A stretch of DNA of 45,855 nt from a virus (IMGVR_UViG_2531839662_000038); one strand, 5' to 3'; positions 32,730 through 39,362 are shown, counted from the stretch's first letter. The notes: a model not told the origin generated them from the sequence alone. Translations and numbers: made by a program.

Positions 32730-34196
32730 ATGGCTACTTGGCAAGGATCAAATGGCGGATTATTGGCTGGTATCGGCGGCGTCAACTCAAACGCTCCGAA
32801 CGTAAATGACATCGGCAATACGCTTCAGTTTATCAGGCAGAACAATGATATTGAGCGTTCAGGCGCTAACAATGTTGGGCTGACTGCTTTGCAAGGCCTT
32901 TCAGGTATTGCGGGGGTGTTTCAGCAGGAAAAGCAGGCTCAGCGGCAGAAAGAATTTCAGCAGGCATACGCTAATGCTTATGCGTCTGGTGATCGCGGTG
33001 CTTTGCGTCAGTTGGCTACTCAATATCCAGACCAGATTGAATCCGTTCGTAAAGGCATGGGATTCATTGATGAAGACCAACGCAATTCTATCGGCACCTT
33101 AGCGGCTGGCGCACGCCTTGCGGCCTCGTCTCCAGAAGCAATGCAATCATGGCTGCAAAACAACGCCAATGAGCTGGCGCGCGTCGGTGTTGACCCTAAT
33201 AACGTTGCTCAGATGTATCAGCAGAATCCTTCAGGATTTGGTGAGTTTGTTGATCACCTTGGGATGGCTGCTCTCGGTCCGATTGACTACTTCAATGTTC
33301 AGGACAAGATGGCTGGTCGTGAGATTGACCGAGGCAGGCTGGCAGAGACAATCCGCAGCAATCAGGCCGGAGAAGCACTTCAGGCGAGAGGGCAGGATAT
33401 TAGCCGAGCAAATGCGTTAACGTCAGCATATGCACCAACAGCCGCAATGCAGAATTACAATCAGTACGCGCAAATGTTAAAGGCAGATCCAGATGGTGCA
33501 GCGGCATTTGCGGCAGCGGCGGGAATTAATCCCAATGCTAAGAAATTACTTAAGGTTGAAACCAATCCTGATGGATCGGTAACTAAGTATTACACCGATG
33601 GCAGCGAGGAAGCCGGAAAACTAAACCAACCTATATCTGGTGATGGCATTAAACCAATTAGCTTGCCACAAGCGCAAAGCATCATAGATAAGGCTAATGA
33701 GGGTTCCAAGAAGGCGGCAGGATTTGCTTTGCGATTAAAAGATTCAATGGACTCAATGAATCAGCTTAGTAAAAGCATTGACCCTAAGCGAGTTGCATTA
33801 ATAAATCGCTCTCTTGGTGATGGGACTATTGCAAATTTAAGCCTATCACCAGCGGAGCAGCAATATATGGTAAATGCGAGAGACGCCTTGTATGCAATTT
33901 TGCGCCCAGAAACAGGTGCAGCAATTACTCTGCCAGAGATGCAGGAGTATTCCAAAATGTACCTGCCTCAGCCCGGTGATTCCAAGGCTGCTACTGAAAC
34001 AAAAATGCGAAAAATGCAGGGCCAATATAACTCATTACGTGGTCAGTCTGGTCGCGTTTATGATGCTTTGGTGGTTTCAAGTGCTGCAAATAGTCAACAA
34101 CAGAGCAATAGCCAACAACCGACAAATACCCAACAGCAGCAGAGTCAATCCGGATCATATACCTCAAAATCAGGCATTCAATTTACGGTGGAATGA
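32730..34196 (+). CDS. Ejection protein (P22 gene 20 type)
   Basis: 488-aa ORF; position. Confidence 0.75.
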
Positions 34197-36319
34197 TGAA
34201 AGTAACTGCAAACGGTAAGACATTTACCTTCCCTGATGGTACGAGCACGGAAGATATTGGCACCGCCATTGATGAGTATTTTGCTGGTCAGGCTGTTCAG
34301 CAACAAACAGTTAATCAGGCCAATAATGCACCAACACGGGAAGAACCATCATTAATGCAACAAGCTGGCGATTGGCTCACTGGTGGTCAAAGTGCAGGGC
34401 AAATTGCAGAACAGGCTGGTCGTGGTCTGGTAAACATACCATTTGACGTATTGCAGGGTGGCGCAAGTCTGATTAATGCAATCAGTCAGGGGCTTGGTGG
34501 GCCAAAAGTATTGGATGATGTCTATCGTCCAGTCGATCGACCGACAGACCCTTATGCGCAAGCTGGAGAAACAATTGGCGGGTATCTCCTGCCAATTGGC
34601 ACAGCGGCAAAAGTTGCTGGAGCGCCAGCAAAGCTCGCAGGAGACATCGGTTCCGCAGGAAACATGATTGCAGGTTCTCTTGCTGATGCTGCAAATCAGG
34701 AGGGTGATTTTGCACAAAATGCTGCCATTAACGGTGGTATCAATATTGGTGCTCAAGGCGTTCTTTCAGGTGTCGGGCGCGTTATTGCGCCAAGGGTTTC
34801 ACAGGCTCTTGGTGGTGCAGCACTGAATTCTGCTAATGAAGTTTCTAGGATGGCAAAGTCAGGTGCTGGGCGTCAGTCAATTGCCAGTCAGGCCGCTAAT
34901 GTGTCCGAAGATGTAGCAAAAGCGGCTGAGTCTGCTGGAATTGATATAAACGCATTAACACCAGGAATGCGATCTGGAAGTCGTGGAATTGCACAAGCCG
35001 AAGGCGCATTGGCATCAACACCTGGAATTGTTCAGGACGCCCATCAGGCAGCATTTAACGAAATATCATCAAAGTTAAGTCGAAACCTTGATGAATTTGG
35101 GGCCACATCTGGAACGGCATCAGAAAAAAGTGCGGCTATAAAACAAAGGATTCTTCAAAATCTTGATCAGATGAAGGATGCCGAGCGCGCGGCATGGGAT
35201 GACGTGCGGTCAACAATGCCAAATCAAAAAGCAAGAATGCTAAATGGTAATGCCGTTATTCAGGCAGAGCGATCTGCTGGCATACCGCTTACTCCTGAAA
35301 TGAAACAGTTTGTTCAGGCAAACAATCAAGGTGGAGTAACATTTGATGGCATGAAAGCATGGAGAGCGAAATTTGCTGATGCGGAGCAAAAATATAAGCG
35401 TAGCGGAGAGGCAAATGCGGCAAGGAGAGCAGGGGAAATACGCCGGGCAATTACTGATGATATGCGCACAATGGCGGAAAACGGCGGATTTCTTGATGAC
35501 TGGCAGAAAGCTAATGATCTGTCTAAAGCGAGGTTATCAGCACAAGAGAGTGCAGAGTCTGTTTTCGGGCGTGATTTGGCAACAGATGCACTGATTACGA
35601 ATGGAGTAAAATCCCTTCAATCATCGTCAGCTAAAGGTCTTAATGGTCCTGCTGGATTCCATTCTATGATCCGCGCGCTGCCAGAATCAGAGCGTGTTCC
35701 TGCTATATCATCAATGTTGCAAGATGCTATCTCGCATGGTGTACGTGGTGGCAAAGCTGATGCAGCAGGAATTAACCATATCGCAGAGATACTGACTCCA
35801 CAAAATGTAAAAGCCATTAGCCGATATTCCTCAGAGCTTGGAAGAATTGCTGATGCATATGGCACTCTTGCAAGAGCAGCAGTGAAACCTCAGCAGTATA
35901 TTGAAAGAACAGGTAGAACTGCCAATGTACTACGCGATCTGGATGCTGGTTTATCCAACGTCACATCAACAGTGTTAAATGCAATTGCCAATTCAACATC
36001 AGGTGCCATTGTTGGTGGCGCTGGAGGAGGCATTGCAGGCGCTGCCGCAGGTGCTTTAGTTGGCGCTGGGTTAAAAGGCGCTGTATCTAAAATTGCCACC
36101 ACACGTAGTGGTCGGTATGCGATAGAGAAAGCGGTTCAGGAAGCAACTAAAGCAGTAAGAGCAGGCGGAAGCAAAGAAGCATTAGCGGCGGCGGAACGCA
36201 GATTTATGGCAAATAAGGCCGCCGTAAAAGCAATACGCGAGGCACTAGGAAACGAAGAGTTCCAGCGTTTAGCAAGGGCTGGAATTGTGGCATCGCTAAG
36301 CGGAATGGCACAGGAGTAA
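34193..36319 (+). CDS. Ejection protein (P22 gene 16 type)
   Basis: 708-aa ORF; position; Gly/Ala-rich repeats. Confidence 0.75.
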
Positions 36320-36649
36320 TTAGTCATCCATGGATGGATTGAGCTTATCTCGTGTTGATGTGGCAATTTTACCAACATTTTTCAACCAAGATTTTAAGAA
36401 GGATATGTCGTCCTTAATATCATGAATATCCTCATTCTTTATACGATCAACCTTATCCTCTAGGCTCTCTATAGAACGCTCAATGCTAGACAGAGAGATT
36501 TTTAAGTCTCCTTGCTCACGTTCCAGTGAGGATTTGAGAGCACAATATTCGTTTTCTAGAATTCCTATTTTTTTTGTTAGAGAGTGCATTCGATACTCAT
36601 ACACCAAACTAGAAACGACTAATGCAGCCAACAGAAACCATTCAAGCAC
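36320..36649 (-). CDS. Unrecognised membrane protein with N-terminal TM helix and coiled coil (immI-region moron)
   Basis: 109-aa ORF; hydrophobic N-terminus WFLLAALVVSSLVY then heptad-rich region; convergent with gene 16. Confidence 0.5.
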   Translation of the reverse strand: MLEWFLLAALVVSSLVYEYRMHSLTKKIGILENEYCALKSSLEREQGDLKISLSSIERSIESLEDKVDRIKNEDIHDIKDDISFLKSWLKNVGKIATSTRDKLNPSMDD

Positions 36650-37017
36650 ACCAACCTCCTTAGTTTTGCGCAGGATACCAGATGATACTTTATTGGTGGA
36701 GTGGTGTGTGAAAACGTGTCAACGACAAACCATCCACAACTTGGGCGAATGATTTAGCAAAAAGTGCTATTTTTGGTGTTTGGTGTCATAGAAAAGTGAA
36801 TAGCTCACTTTTCAACATTGCATGAAACTTGCAGGAAATGTGACATTACCTTATAGGTAACTTCGGCGAAAATGCAGTAAATGTGAAATGTAATGATTTA
36901 AACGTGTCGATAAAGTGGTTGTAAGTTAGCCTCTGAAGGATTGATGACAGCTTTGTTATGGTATTAAATGCAACTTGACACAGTTGTATACATAGCTGCG
37001 GCTATCAAGATGGAGGT

Positions 37018-37467
37018 ATGTTTATGCTCACTTGTTTTGATGTCGCCGACTACTTCTTGGCGCATTGCGATGAAGAAAGTGGCGACATTATCTCTAACCT
37101 AAAAATTCAGAAGTTGACGTATTATGCCCAAGGGTTTTCTCTGGTTCTTCTGGGTAAGCCGCTATTTAATGAGAAAATTGAAGCCTGGATGCATGGGCCA
37201 GTAGTTCCTGAATTGTATCGTAAATATAGGGACTGTGGTAACGGAGCTTTACCTGCGCCAGAAAACTTTGACGCTAAAAAATTCAGTGAAGATGAAATTG
37301 AATTGCTGGATGAGGTGTATAAAGTTTATGGTCAGTTTTCTGCCTGGAAACTGCGCAATATGACTCACGAAGAGCAGCCATGGAAAGATGCTTACATTGA
37401 GGGTGCGGTTAGCCAAGAAATCACACTTGATTCTATGAAAGGTTTTTTCAAAACGTTAATTAACTGA
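37018..37467 (+). CDS. Panacea-domain (DUF4065, SocA/GepA-like) protein, PanA-antitoxin-like
   Basis: 149-aa ORF; motif KIQKLTYYAQGFSLVLLGKPLFNEKIEAWMHGPVVPELY typical of DUF4065. Confidence 0.65.
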   Translation: MFMLTCFDVADYFLAHCDEESGDIISNLKIQKLTYYAQGFSLVLLGKPLFNEKIEAWMHGPVVPELYRKYRDCGNGALPAPENFDAKKFSEDEIELLDEVYKVYGQFSAWKLRNMTHEEQPWKDAYIEGAVSQEITLDSMKGFFKTLIN

Positions 37468-37472
37468 CGTGT

Positions 37473-37895
37473 ATGTCTAGAGTTAAGGGAAGAATAAAAC
37501 AGAGGGATAAAGAGAGCTCTGCTACTGTTGGCCTCTCTATCCATCACGAATCTCATGATGTAGACAAAAGTCCGCCTGTATTTTCTCTTAGATACCTACA
37601 AAAGGGGTATTGCCTAGATTGCTGCCAAAAGCATGAAAAGGCAGCATTTGCAGATAGGCTGTTCAGGTTAAGTCGGATGTCATGGGATGAGATACGAAAA
37701 TCTGATAAACACGGGCTTGGGACGGAAAAAATTGCCAGAAACGCGATAAAAGCTCCGATTCCTAAGCATGTTACTCAAGATGTGGATTTCATTGCGTTCA
37801 GATTTTGCTCTAAGGCACCTATGGTTGGTTATAAGATAGGAGCCACTTTTTATGTCTTATGGCTCGACAGGGAGTTCAAGCTATACAAGCACTAA
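37473..37895 (+). CDS. Unrecognised protein, operon partner of the Panacea-domain gene (candidate toxin/effector)
   Basis: 140-aa ORF 5 nt after the upstream stop; basic; no family recognised; followed by a strong terminator. Confidence 0.5.
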   Translation: MSRVKGRIKQRDKESSATVGLSIHHESHDVDKSPPVFSLRYLQKGYCLDCCQKHEKAAFADRLFRLSRMSWDEIRKSDKHGLGTEKIARNAIKAPIPKHVTQDVDFIAFRFCSKAPMVGYKIGATFYVLWLDREFKLYKH

Positions 37896-37896
37896 T

Positions 37897-37924
37897 AAAA
37901 CCCACCGTCAGGTGGGTTTTTTTG
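37897..37924 (+). terminator. Intrinsic terminator after the Panacea operon
   Basis: AAACCCACC-GTCA-GGTGGGTTTTTTTGTT. Confidence 0.75.
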
Positions 37925-37939
37925 TTGGAGATAAAATGG

Positions 37940-38143
37940 TTAACCAAATCGATCCTTAAAGCGTCTATCGCTGTTGCGTCTCTCCATTTTACTGTTGCAG
38001 TACGGACAAAGATGCTGTTTCTTTCCATCGATAGTCCATGTGAAGTACTTTTTCTTAAATCCAGCACCACAGATATCGCAACTTCTTGGTTTAAACATAC
38101 TGGCTATGAAGATAAGAACAACAAATCCTATGATCCATTCCAT
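37940..38143 (-). CDS. Small membrane protein with zinc-ribbon (CxxC...CxxC)
   Basis: 67-aa ORF; TM helix WIIGFVVLIFIASMF; CDICG...CPYC. Confidence 0.4.
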   Translation of the reverse strand: MEWIIGFVVLIFIASMFKPRSCDICGAGFKKKYFTWTIDGKKQHLCPYCNSKMERRNSDRRFKDRFG

Positions 38144-38479
38144 ATCATGTACCTGTTTTAACTTTATTTTTTGATTTTTAGGGATTAATCAGAAACTTTA
38201 TCTTGCGATTAAGCAAAGCTACTAGCTAACAAAAGAGTGCGTATACAATCAATCGTTTCACATCAACCTCAACAAGGAGAAATCATGACCATAGAAGAAC
38301 GCCTGAACAACATTGAGTTGAACCAAACCCTGCTTGACCAGCGACTTTCAGATCTTGAGCTTAAAGATCTGGATGCGCAAATATCAGAAGCAGAAGCCAA
38401 GCTCTCCAGCTTAAACCACCGCAAGAAGCAAATCCGCAACAGAATTACTCAGGGACGCGGAAGCCGTTGAAATCATAGT

Positions 38480-38797
38480 CTATTTTTTCTCAGAGCTCAT
38501 ATTGTAATAGGTGGTATAAATAGAGATTGATTTCTGACATGCTTCAAGAAATTGCTGCGGAGTCATCCCGAGCCTTGCTTGCTCTGTAGTAAGGAATCTC
38601 TGTAAGAATTCATTCCCACCTGGCATGTTTGTAGATTCTTGGAATATTGCCATTTGTTTGATTGCACCACACATACCAGCCATTTTAGAAGCTATCATGA
38701 GGCCTTGTATTTCATCAAAACTGCTATCGTCTGATTTTGTTTCTGCGTTAGCTATGCTCGAGAGACACAGGAGCAATAGGATAGCGATACGTTTCAT
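38480..38797 (-). CDS. Small secreted/periplasmic protein with signal peptide
   Basis: 105-aa ORF; signal peptide MKRIAILLLLCLSSIANA; start overlaps mnt stop (ATGA). Confidence 0.5.
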   Translation of the reverse strand: MKRIAILLLLCLSSIANAETKSDDSSFDEIQGLMIASKMAGMCGAIKQMAIFQESTNMPGGNEFLQRFLTTEQARLGMTPQQFLEACQKSISIYTTYYNMSSEKK

Positions 38798-39045
38798 TTT
38801 TCACCATTGCCATGCATACATTTTAACTTCTCAACATCATGCTCAAGCTCTATCAGTCGCGATGCTATAGTTGCAAGATCTAGTGCTTGAATGTGTTTGT
38901 TTTTTTCGGTCCATGCTTCAAGTGCTGCGACCATCTCAGCATTTAATGAACGAGAATTAGCCTCAGCCAGTTCAATAAGACGTTCCTTTATCTCTACAGG
39001 AAGCCTCAGATTCACTTGAGGGTTTTTGTACTTACGATCAGACAT
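38794..39045 (-). CDS. mnt: Mnt-like ribbon-helix-helix repressor
   Basis: 83 aa; NLRLPVEIKERLIELAEANSRSLNAEMV aligns with remembered P22 Mnt NFRMPMEVREKLKFRAEANGRSMNSELL. Confidence 0.7.
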   Translation of the reverse strand: MSDRKYKNPQVNLRLPVEIKERLIELAEANSRSLNAEMVAALEAWTEKNKHIQALDLATIASRLIELEHDVEKLKCMHGNGEK

Positions 39046-39148
39046 CGGCGCATCCTGAATAATTTTTTACCACAGGATATGTAGGTATCTATTGACTATC
39101 AATGCGTACCTAAATACTATGTATGCGTACCACATACAAAGGAGCAAA
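39046..39148. promoter_or_regulatory. Divergent mnt/arc-ant promoter-operator region
   Basis: Inverted TAGGTA/TACCTA and repeated GCGTACC motifs between divergent RHH repressor genes. Confidence 0.4.
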
Positions 39149-39295: not shown

Positions 39296-39362
39296 AGTAA
39301 AGCCCAAGCTATTGCGAGTAGCTCGGGCTTAAATCGCCAGTAAATTTTGAGGAAAAACTGAC

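Follow-up and report, generated by a model that had tools for sequence, protein, structure and literature searches.

Three small cargo genes, probably for envelope proteins, on the mnt strand of the ant moron of a P22-like prophage

The late operon of P22-like phages has a single spot at which non-structural cargo is found, for which Villafane et al (PMC2629481) coined the name 'ant moron', and this spot is in rapid flux, with ten types among sixteen genomes (PMC2629481). P22 has sieA, orf59a, mnt, arc, sar and ant there. Here we analyse the corresponding part of a viral sequence of 45,855 nucleotides (IMGVR_UViG_2531839662_000038, the whole of which is referred to as the window), where three small genes, called here open reading frames (ORFs) 109, 67 and 105 after the lengths of their products, lie on the minus strand between gene 16 and mnt. 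The segment that carries them is the hypervariable ant moron (immI region), a known hot spot, of a P22-like (Lederbergvirus-type) prophage, and positions 36200-39100 are 100% identical in the chromosomes of Escherichia coli UMNF18 and ET245.

Two experimental precedents exist for superinfection exclusion at this position. SieA sits in the inner membrane and blocks the injection of DNA by P22-like phages, escape mutations mapping to gp16 and gp20 (PMC10883804); 22 of 66 sequenced P22-like phages, a third of them, carry its gene (PMC10883804). In BTP1 the lysogen expresses STnc6030, an RNA antisense to the 3′ end of its gene 16 homologue, which excludes BTP1 (PMC7067206). Because of these precedents exclusion is our leading hypothesis for the three genes. 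They share with sieA the slot downstream of mnt and beside gene 16 and also the mnt strand, from which SieA is expressed in the prophage as an inner-membrane protein. SieA, however, is polytopic and 160-205 residues long, whereas the three proteins here have 67, 105 and 109 residues with one hydrophobic segment each, and they show neither sequence similarity to it nor its FxRYPxEAxxFNK motif. Searching the whole window by tblastn with SieA queries from P22 and of the Citrobacter type B/C-like kind gave nothing below an expectation value (E) of 0.6, and the motif matched in no plausible ORF of the window. The likeness to STnc6030 is that of a minus-strand element at the 3′ end of a gene 16 homologue, as a transcript of ORF109 would also be antisense to gene 16, but STnc6030 is non-coding while ORF109 is a conserved protein gene.

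The operon position taken by ORF105 here, and by ORF67 homologues elsewhere, is held in P22 by orf59a, likewise a small gene co-transcribed with mnt. Its sequence is unrelated, and Orf59a is a soluble, basic protein of 59 residues with no hydrophobic segment; as a relative of ORF67 in particular it was rejected on sequence comparison. The closest described gene is hkcB of HK620 (gp14 of epsilon34, hkcB of CUS-3): ORF109 is the same gene on the same strand, with the same length and the same abutment on gene 16, and no substantive difference was found. Similar formats are known from T4, where Spackle is a small Sec-exported helical periplasmic exclusion protein, like ORF105 in build, and Imm a small inner-membrane exclusion protein, to which ORF67 and HkcB may be compared.

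Three cargo genes opposite to the late operon

Upstream, the cargo segment is flanked by gene 20 and by gene 16 (34193..36319), both on the plus strand. Gene 16 is followed in order by ORF109 on the minus strand, a Panacea-domain gene and its partner on the plus strand, a hairpin, ORF67 on the minus strand, a gene for a 61-residue protein on the plus strand, and ORF105 and mnt, both on the minus strand. ORF109 (36320..36649), ORF67 (37940..38143) and ORF105 (38480..38797) are unrelated to one another and were independently acquired, and all three share the strand of mnt and run against the late operon. They are present exactly where an initial annotation of the window had placed them and with the lengths given there; each is under purifying selection and has full-length homologues. 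It is very likely that we are dealing with true, conserved cargo genes of the mnt strand whose products are targeted to the envelope. The finding is mostly of a known kind, namely prophage cargo genes in a known hot spot, and one of the three already has a name.

The segment is a mosaic, with breakpoints found by megablast at about 36647, 37922, 38470 and 38817. The complete arrangement occurs in only 2 of 5426 complete E. coli genomes, while among the same genomes the parts are found singly, ORF67 in 32, ORF105 in 36 and hkcB in 82-117. The GC content is low, as the initial annotation had it, at 0.35-0.44, where the adjoining structural genes have about 0.43-0.54. As expected for morons, each gene is present in only a subset of P22-like prophages, in varying combinations and with deviant GC content. 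For a promoter and terminator of their own there are only predicted elements, a Pmnt-like site, extended −10-like elements and a bidirectional hairpin, and the scan counts are at chance level.

The comparative data effectively refute the explanation that one or more of the three is a chance reading frame in AT-rich intergenic DNA. Suspicion would fall on ORF67, which the Prokaryotic Genome Annotation Pipeline (PGAP) leaves uncalled in most genomes (11 of the 12 listed), which has only a weak Shine-Dalgarno sequence (CAGGT) and which is opposed by a longer antisense ORF. Its homologues, at 63-82% amino acid identity, nonetheless retain the length, all four cysteines and the C-terminal motif even though synonymous sites are saturated (proportion of non-synonymous differences, pN, 0.13-0.20). 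For the other two the ratio of non-synonymous to synonymous substitution rates (dN/dS) against diverged homologues is no higher than 0.26, being 0.17 and 0.09 in two comparisons for ORF105 and 0.21-0.26 overall for ORF109, with 0.15 for residues 66-109 of the latter. All three genes recur in independent genomic contexts.

Each protein has a single strongly hydrophobic N-terminal segment, with a Kyte-Doolittle mean over 15 residues of 2.1-2.7, and all three are predicted to be targeted to the envelope. The description of them as membrane or secreted proteins can be narrowed. In ORF109 and ORF67 the hydrophobic segment is preceded by no positive charge and followed by three to five, so that by the positive-inside rule their C-terminal domains would be cytoplasmic and their N-termini outside; they would thus be anchored and not secreted. 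A cytoplasmic C-terminal side fits the zinc-binding domain of ORF67.

By comparing 82 distinct mnt-to-gene-16 regions, using crude longest-ORF calls and single-linkage clustering, we found that envelope proteins are enriched strand-specifically: 15 of the 25 cargo families on the mnt strand have a strongly hydrophobic segment, but only 4 of the 27 on the late strand do (Fisher p = 0.0013). This enrichment is new here. The clustering merged families through shared upstream ORF extensions and lost ORF67 to its longer antisense ORF, and only the strand contrast is used. The same slots can instead be filled by SieA, by a lipoprotein or by further signal-peptide or transmembrane (TM) proteins. The chief exception is a lipoprotein of 143-150 residues on the late strand (MKRIIGVVAGA..LSGC), seen in 13 of the 82 regions (for example L034 2108..2539).

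ORF105 and ORF67, two families beside mnt

The ATG of ORF105 overlaps the TGA of mnt as ATGA (38797..38794), with GGTGA upstream, and its product begins with a signal peptide, both as initially annotated. The signal is of the classical Sec type, with MKR, a hydrophobic core, an AxA site (ANA followed by E) and an acidic mature N-terminus. Cleavage is predicted after ANA18 and would leave a periplasmic protein of about 87 residues; the GenBank record of Kapi1 carries a DeepTMHMM note, 'signal 1-22', on its homologue. AlphaFold2 (AF2) predicts a three-helix fold, with a predicted local distance difference test score (pLDDT) of 82-92 in the core. ORF105 matches phrog_19844 (E 1.1e-69), as do all 40 aligned members of its family (40/40), which gave no match in Pfam or NCBIfam. 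The core motif, K..G.CG...QM..FQ..TKM.GGDEF..RF..TE.ARLG...C, contains the invariant residues K38, C43, F52, Q53, E72, R75 and C87, while the signal peptide and linker are variable; the protein is probably disulphide-bonded.

A word-based search recovered 11 clusters, in E. coli, Salmonella and Citrobacter, and a profile search of 1.84 billion representatives recovered at least 256 with E ≤ 1e-3, of which 167 reached E ≤ 1e-10; almost all have about 100 residues. These numbers count clusters at 50% identity across the Proteobacteria, and the genera include Yersinia, Pseudomonas, Methylophaga, Nitrosomonas, Limnobaculum and Tenebrionibacter. Members in P22-like prophages use two slots, both on the mnt strand, one overlapping the mnt stop and the other beside gene 16, the latter being that of the Kapi1-type homologue (47% identity). 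The overlap of 4 nucleotides with the mnt stop is kept in every mnt-linked homologue examined, divergent ones included, and from this layout ORF105 appears to be translationally coupled to mnt. More distant relatives stand alone and mostly point against the lytic genes beside them.

What follows the mnt-coupled gene on its 3′ side varies. It may be the convergent gene for the 61-residue protein, a lipoprotein of 161 residues with an LAGC lipobox that is common in E. coli prophages (L021 5341..5826), or, in Citrobacter, a SieA-like protein. The last, in Citrobacter freundii (L018 5332..5946), has 204 residues, is 25% identical to P22 SieA and contains the motif NRYPGEA. As ORF105 is here in one operon with a SieA homologue, it is not the replacement of SieA. 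The initial annotation had described the cluster as replacing sieA, which is right as to the slot between gene 16 and mnt and as to the lack of SieA in the window, but does not hold for ORF105. New here are how large and how well conserved the phrog_19844 family is, and that it coexists with SieA.

The breadth of this family, with its at least 256 clusters and with homologues in varied prophage contexts that typically face neighbouring lytic genes, would also suit lysogenic conversion unrelated to exclusion, for ORF105 especially. Under this explanation the genes would confer, for example, tolerance of envelope stress, resistance to serum or bile, or immunity to type VI effectors or bacteriocins that act in the periplasm, and immunity proteins are commonly small, periplasmic and disulphide-bonded. 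Prophage cargo also often serves host fitness (PMC7067206). Against it, there is no sequence or fold match to a known immunity or virulence protein, exclusion functions are the only ones demonstrated at this position in P22-like phages, and the nearness of the genes to gene 16 and the immunity I switch is more easily explained by conflict between phages. We regard lysogenic conversion as possible but somewhat doubtful.

In ORF67 a TM helix (residues 3-17) is followed by a zinc ribbon of the form CxxC...CPxC and a basic helix, and F..FG at the C-terminus is invariant, in line with the TM and zinc-ribbon description given initially. Its family comprises 18 clusters of about 67 residues, from Yersinia, Klebsiella phage KP12, Edwardsiella phage Edno5 and metagenomes, which share W3, P19, C22-x2-C25, C46-P-x-C49 and F..FG. 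In the two CxxC-type knuckles C22, C46 and C49 are invariant over the 18 sequences, and C25 is at least 90% conserved. In the AF2 model (pLDDT 82.6) a helix at residues 2-16 is followed by a hairpin at 34-45 and a helix at 47-66, and the soluble part is predicted to adopt a treble-clef or zinc-ribbon-like fold. No match was found in Pfam, or in PHROGs for any aligned member.

The usual genomic partner of ORF67 across phage types, other morphotypes included, is mnt and not gene 16. Outside the E. coli type an mnt-like gene on the same strand ends at most 36 nucleotides upstream of ORF67 in 28 of 35 distinct loci, and in nine of these the gap is 5 nucleotides or fewer. In myovirus-type prophages and phages ORF67 lies directly behind a Mnt-type ribbon-helix-helix gene, and once behind a CI-type gene; the Mnt-type gene diverges from arc and the antirepressor, and the whole unit is inserted among tail genes. 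In the E. coli P22-like loci the opposite-strand gene for the 61-residue protein (phrog_7586) always stands between mnt and ORF67 (12/12). The link of this unannotated TM zinc-ribbon gene to mnt across phage types is new here.

Such linkage raises the question of whether ORF67, ORF105 or both, instead of being independent cargo, cooperate with Mnt in the immunity I circuit or make up, together with this ribbon-helix-helix protein, an addiction pair of the toxin-antitoxin kind. The position of ORF67 next to or nearly next to mnt-like genes and the constant overlap of ORF105 with mnt are as this would predict, since in type II toxin-antitoxin systems a ribbon-helix-helix gene is usually overlapped by the small gene behind it. 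The upstream genes, however, are genuine Mnt analogues beside arc, sar and ant, and neither ORF67 nor ORF105 matches a toxin family, so that the pairs do not classify as type II toxin-antitoxin systems. Moreover mnt occurs with neither gene in P22, epsilon34 and many prophages, relatives of ORF105 are also found far from any mnt, and in the E. coli type ORF67 is split from mnt by a gene on the opposite strand. A partnership of this kind therefore seems very unlikely.

HkcB and its junction with gene 16

ORF109 is 97% identical to HK620 HkcB over 109 residues, the two being of equal length, and about 50-56% identical to epsilon34 gp14, CUS-3 hkcB and SEN22 gp15; it matches positions 2-109 of the 109 in the profile of phrog_5962 (E 5e-61). 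It had been listed as unrecognised, which does not apply to a gene already named hkcB. The gene has a GTG start with AAGGAGG 5 nucleotides upstream. In the family alignment an N-terminal hydrophobic helix (residues 2-16) leads into a coiled coil that varies, and the last 45 or so residues are strongly conserved, which bears out the TM helix and coiled coil first proposed for it; in the libraries searched ORF109 yields just weak, coiled-coil-type matches.

Alignment of the window with HK620, epsilon34, SEN22 and CUS-3 reveals a conserved leader of 38 nucleotides on the minus strand (36650..36687), which contains the Shine-Dalgarno sequence AAGGAGG (36661..36655) and an extended −10-like element, TGGTATCCT, at 36680..36672. 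Homology among the otherwise diverged hkcB loci stops just upstream of this element, and the leader may well be the own promoter of hkcB.

At its other end the hkcB stop codon abuts that of gene 16 on the opposite strand, with a gap of 0 in 59 of 62 IMG/VR loci (36320 and 36319 in the window). No intrinsic terminator is predicted on either strand within 35200-36700, and the hkcB transcript must therefore continue antisense into gene 16. The gp16 beside hkcB is always of one class, 60-100% identical to the gp16 of the window, and never of the P22 or Kapi1 class. These features would be expected if hkcB acted partly through its RNA, with a transcript antisense to gene 16 that pairs with the late mRNA of an incoming phage having the same 3′ end of gene 16, as STnc6030 does; STnc6030 confers total immunity to BTP1, and escape mutations map to the antisense region. 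Yet hkcB is under purifying selection and has a perfect Shine-Dalgarno sequence and a conserved C-terminal domain, whereas STnc6030 has no ORF of more than 60 residues. The link to one gp16 class may also be co-inheritance, as gp16 of the same class (96% identical) is in other prophages adjoined by a lipoprotein gene instead of hkcB. An RNA-mediated contribution thus appears decidedly unlikely.

The gene 16 DNA of the window is 95% identical to that of CUS-3 and epsilon34 and 79% identical to that of HK620, so this prophage pairs an HK620-type hkcB with an epsilon34/CUS-3-type gene 16. An apparent island of special conservation across the gene 16/hkcB junction was an artefact of starting the query at 36200, as gene 16 over its full length is 95% identical to the epsilon34 and CUS-3 genes. 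The gp16 proteins of CUS-3 and HK620 as deposited have 78% identity, which is at odds with the 'only 26% identical' in PMC10883804. As a further candidate relative of hkcB, st313-td of BTP1 was rejected, since it is bstA and lies beside cI.

Probable lysogenic expression, possible exclusion and the neighbouring genes

The arrangement of genes and signals suggests that the lysogen probably expresses all three genes. Pmnt would serve ORF105 and, by read-through, ORF67, or ORF67 would use a weak promoter of its own; hkcB would depend on the conserved extended −10 promoter. This expectation draws on the overlap of ORF105 with the mnt stop, on the P22 annotation, where the mnt terminator is placed after the gene downstream of mnt, on the link between mnt and ORF67, and on terminator predictions. 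The mnt gene itself (38794..39045, minus strand) is the first of the leftward unit that carries ORF105. It encodes a ribbon-helix-helix repressor of the Arc/Mnt family (Pfam Arc E 3e-10; 47% identical to P22 Mnt over 32 residues), named 'Arc family DNA-binding protein' by PGAP. In a consensus scan a leftward Pmnt-like site (39102..39074, 9/12) overlaps a rightward Pant-like site (39092..39120, 9/12), a layout like that annotated for P22 Pmnt and Pant. No intrinsic terminator is predicted on the minus strand from ORF105 to ORF67, so that a transcript from Pmnt could reach ORF67 and end at the hairpin at 37897..37920. This G+C-rich palindrome with A4/T4+ flanks was picked up by the terminator scan, and a terminator is annotated there in phage Emek; it is a probable bidirectional terminator, serving the Panacea pair on the plus strand and the ORF67 transcript on the minus strand.

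If the exclusion hypothesis is right, the three proteins would protect the lysogen by hindering the entry of superinfecting phage DNA, ORF105 in the periplasm and HkcB and ORF67 at the cytoplasmic face of the inner membrane, in a way functionally analogous, and not homologous, to the action of P22 SieA. By analogy with SieA and STnc6030, exclusion at DNA entry by at least one of the three is plausible and the likeliest of the functions considered, though somewhat less likely than not. The initial annotation held that small envelope proteins here typically serve such functions; the strand census and the two precedents agree with this in general, but for these three proteins exclusion is an extrapolation.

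Several observations weigh against exclusion and the expression that it presupposes. None of the three proteins has sequence or fold similarity to a characterised exclusion or defence protein. ORF105 has relatives in Pseudomonas, Methylophaga and Nitrosomonas, among other prophage settings that have nothing to do with P22-type ejection proteins, and ORF67 has them in myovirus-type prophages, so with families of such phylogenetic and phage-type range any target would have to be general or encoded by the host. The co-occurrence of ORF105 with a SieA homologue counters redundancy and favours no particular function. The promoter and terminator calls of the scans are at chance density, and the envelope census is built on crude gene calls. 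In the Kapi1 lysogen mnt was not detected by RNA-seq (PMC12922286), and expression driven by Pmnt is consequently no safe assumption. None of the three could be given a function by searches of Pfam, NCBIfam, PADLOC and PHROGs; in PADLOC-DB there was no hit for ORF67 or ORF105, and for ORF109 only an 18-bit match of the coiled-coil type to DpdH.

A more ambitious version of the exclusion hypothesis joins the two mnt-linked families. ORF67 would be the conserved second gene of the immunity I mnt operon in podovirus- and myovirus-type temperate phages of the Enterobacterales. It would act at the cytoplasmic face as a new inner-membrane exclusion or abortive-infection factor against incoming DNA or ejection proteins, having gone unnoticed because annotation pipelines skip it. 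ORF105 would represent a second new family, a widespread periplasmic exclusion factor working alongside SieA. As a whole this proposal is unlikely to be correct.

The analysis yields three defined families, for which target range, topology and operon structure can be predicted in testable form. HkcB goes with a single gp16 class, a TM zinc-ribbon gene that RefSeq annotation usually misses goes with mnt across phage types, and the secreted family with two cysteines is widespread and absent from Pfam. Should any of the three block phage entry, this would be a new mechanism of superinfection exclusion and part of the explanation for prophage-mediated phage resistance in porcine enterotoxigenic and other E. 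coli. Should none do so, the enrichment of envelope proteins on the lysogenic strand would still have to be explained.

The initial list of small ORFs was correct for the three but missed a fourth conserved small gene. This is the gene for the 61-residue protein, ORF62 (38285..38470, plus strand; phrog_7586, E 1.4e-42; PGAP WP_000151197.1), whose product has a coiled coil and a basic tail. It is on the late strand, 9 bp from the stop of the convergent ORF105, divergent from ORF67 and in the same mosaic module. As there is no terminator in the gap of 9 bp, the ORF62 mRNA and any read-through from Pmnt would be mutually antisense. In Emek and Kapi1 the phrog_7586 gene overlaps another gene on the minus strand.

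Beyond mnt and the divergent promoter-like sites follow arc on the plus strand, a sar-like antisense RNA on the minus strand, and ant and the tailspike gene on the plus strand. The sar-like RNA lies between arc and ant at 39296..39362 and scores 29.3 bits (E 0.006) against Rfam RF00262, under the gathering score of 43. Together mnt, arc, ant and the sar-like RNA suggest a complete immunity I circuit of the P22 type.

The Panacea-domain gene (37018..37467, plus strand; PF13274, E 2e-24) is on the late strand and forms a separate mosaic module with its partner gene (37473..37895, plus strand), which matches phrog_8366 and, weakly, PADLOC NsnC and NCBIfam MAG6450. The megablast limits of this module are at about 36647 and 37922. 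Between the divergent hkcB and Panacea genes lies a non-coding spacer of 368 bp (36650..37017), which from about 36647 on belongs to the Panacea module and is 99% identical in phages EC.P3 and E212; presumably it holds the promoter and regulatory sites of the module.

In ET245 neither the Panacea partner gene nor ORF67 is annotated by PGAP. The ET245 prophage is a remnant, in which the insertion sequence IS1B joins a truncated ninX-family gene to the final 552 bp of gene 16 (L001 1564..3120). The deletion removes the lysis genes and most of the structural genes, while the cargo segment is intact and the prophage otherwise identical.

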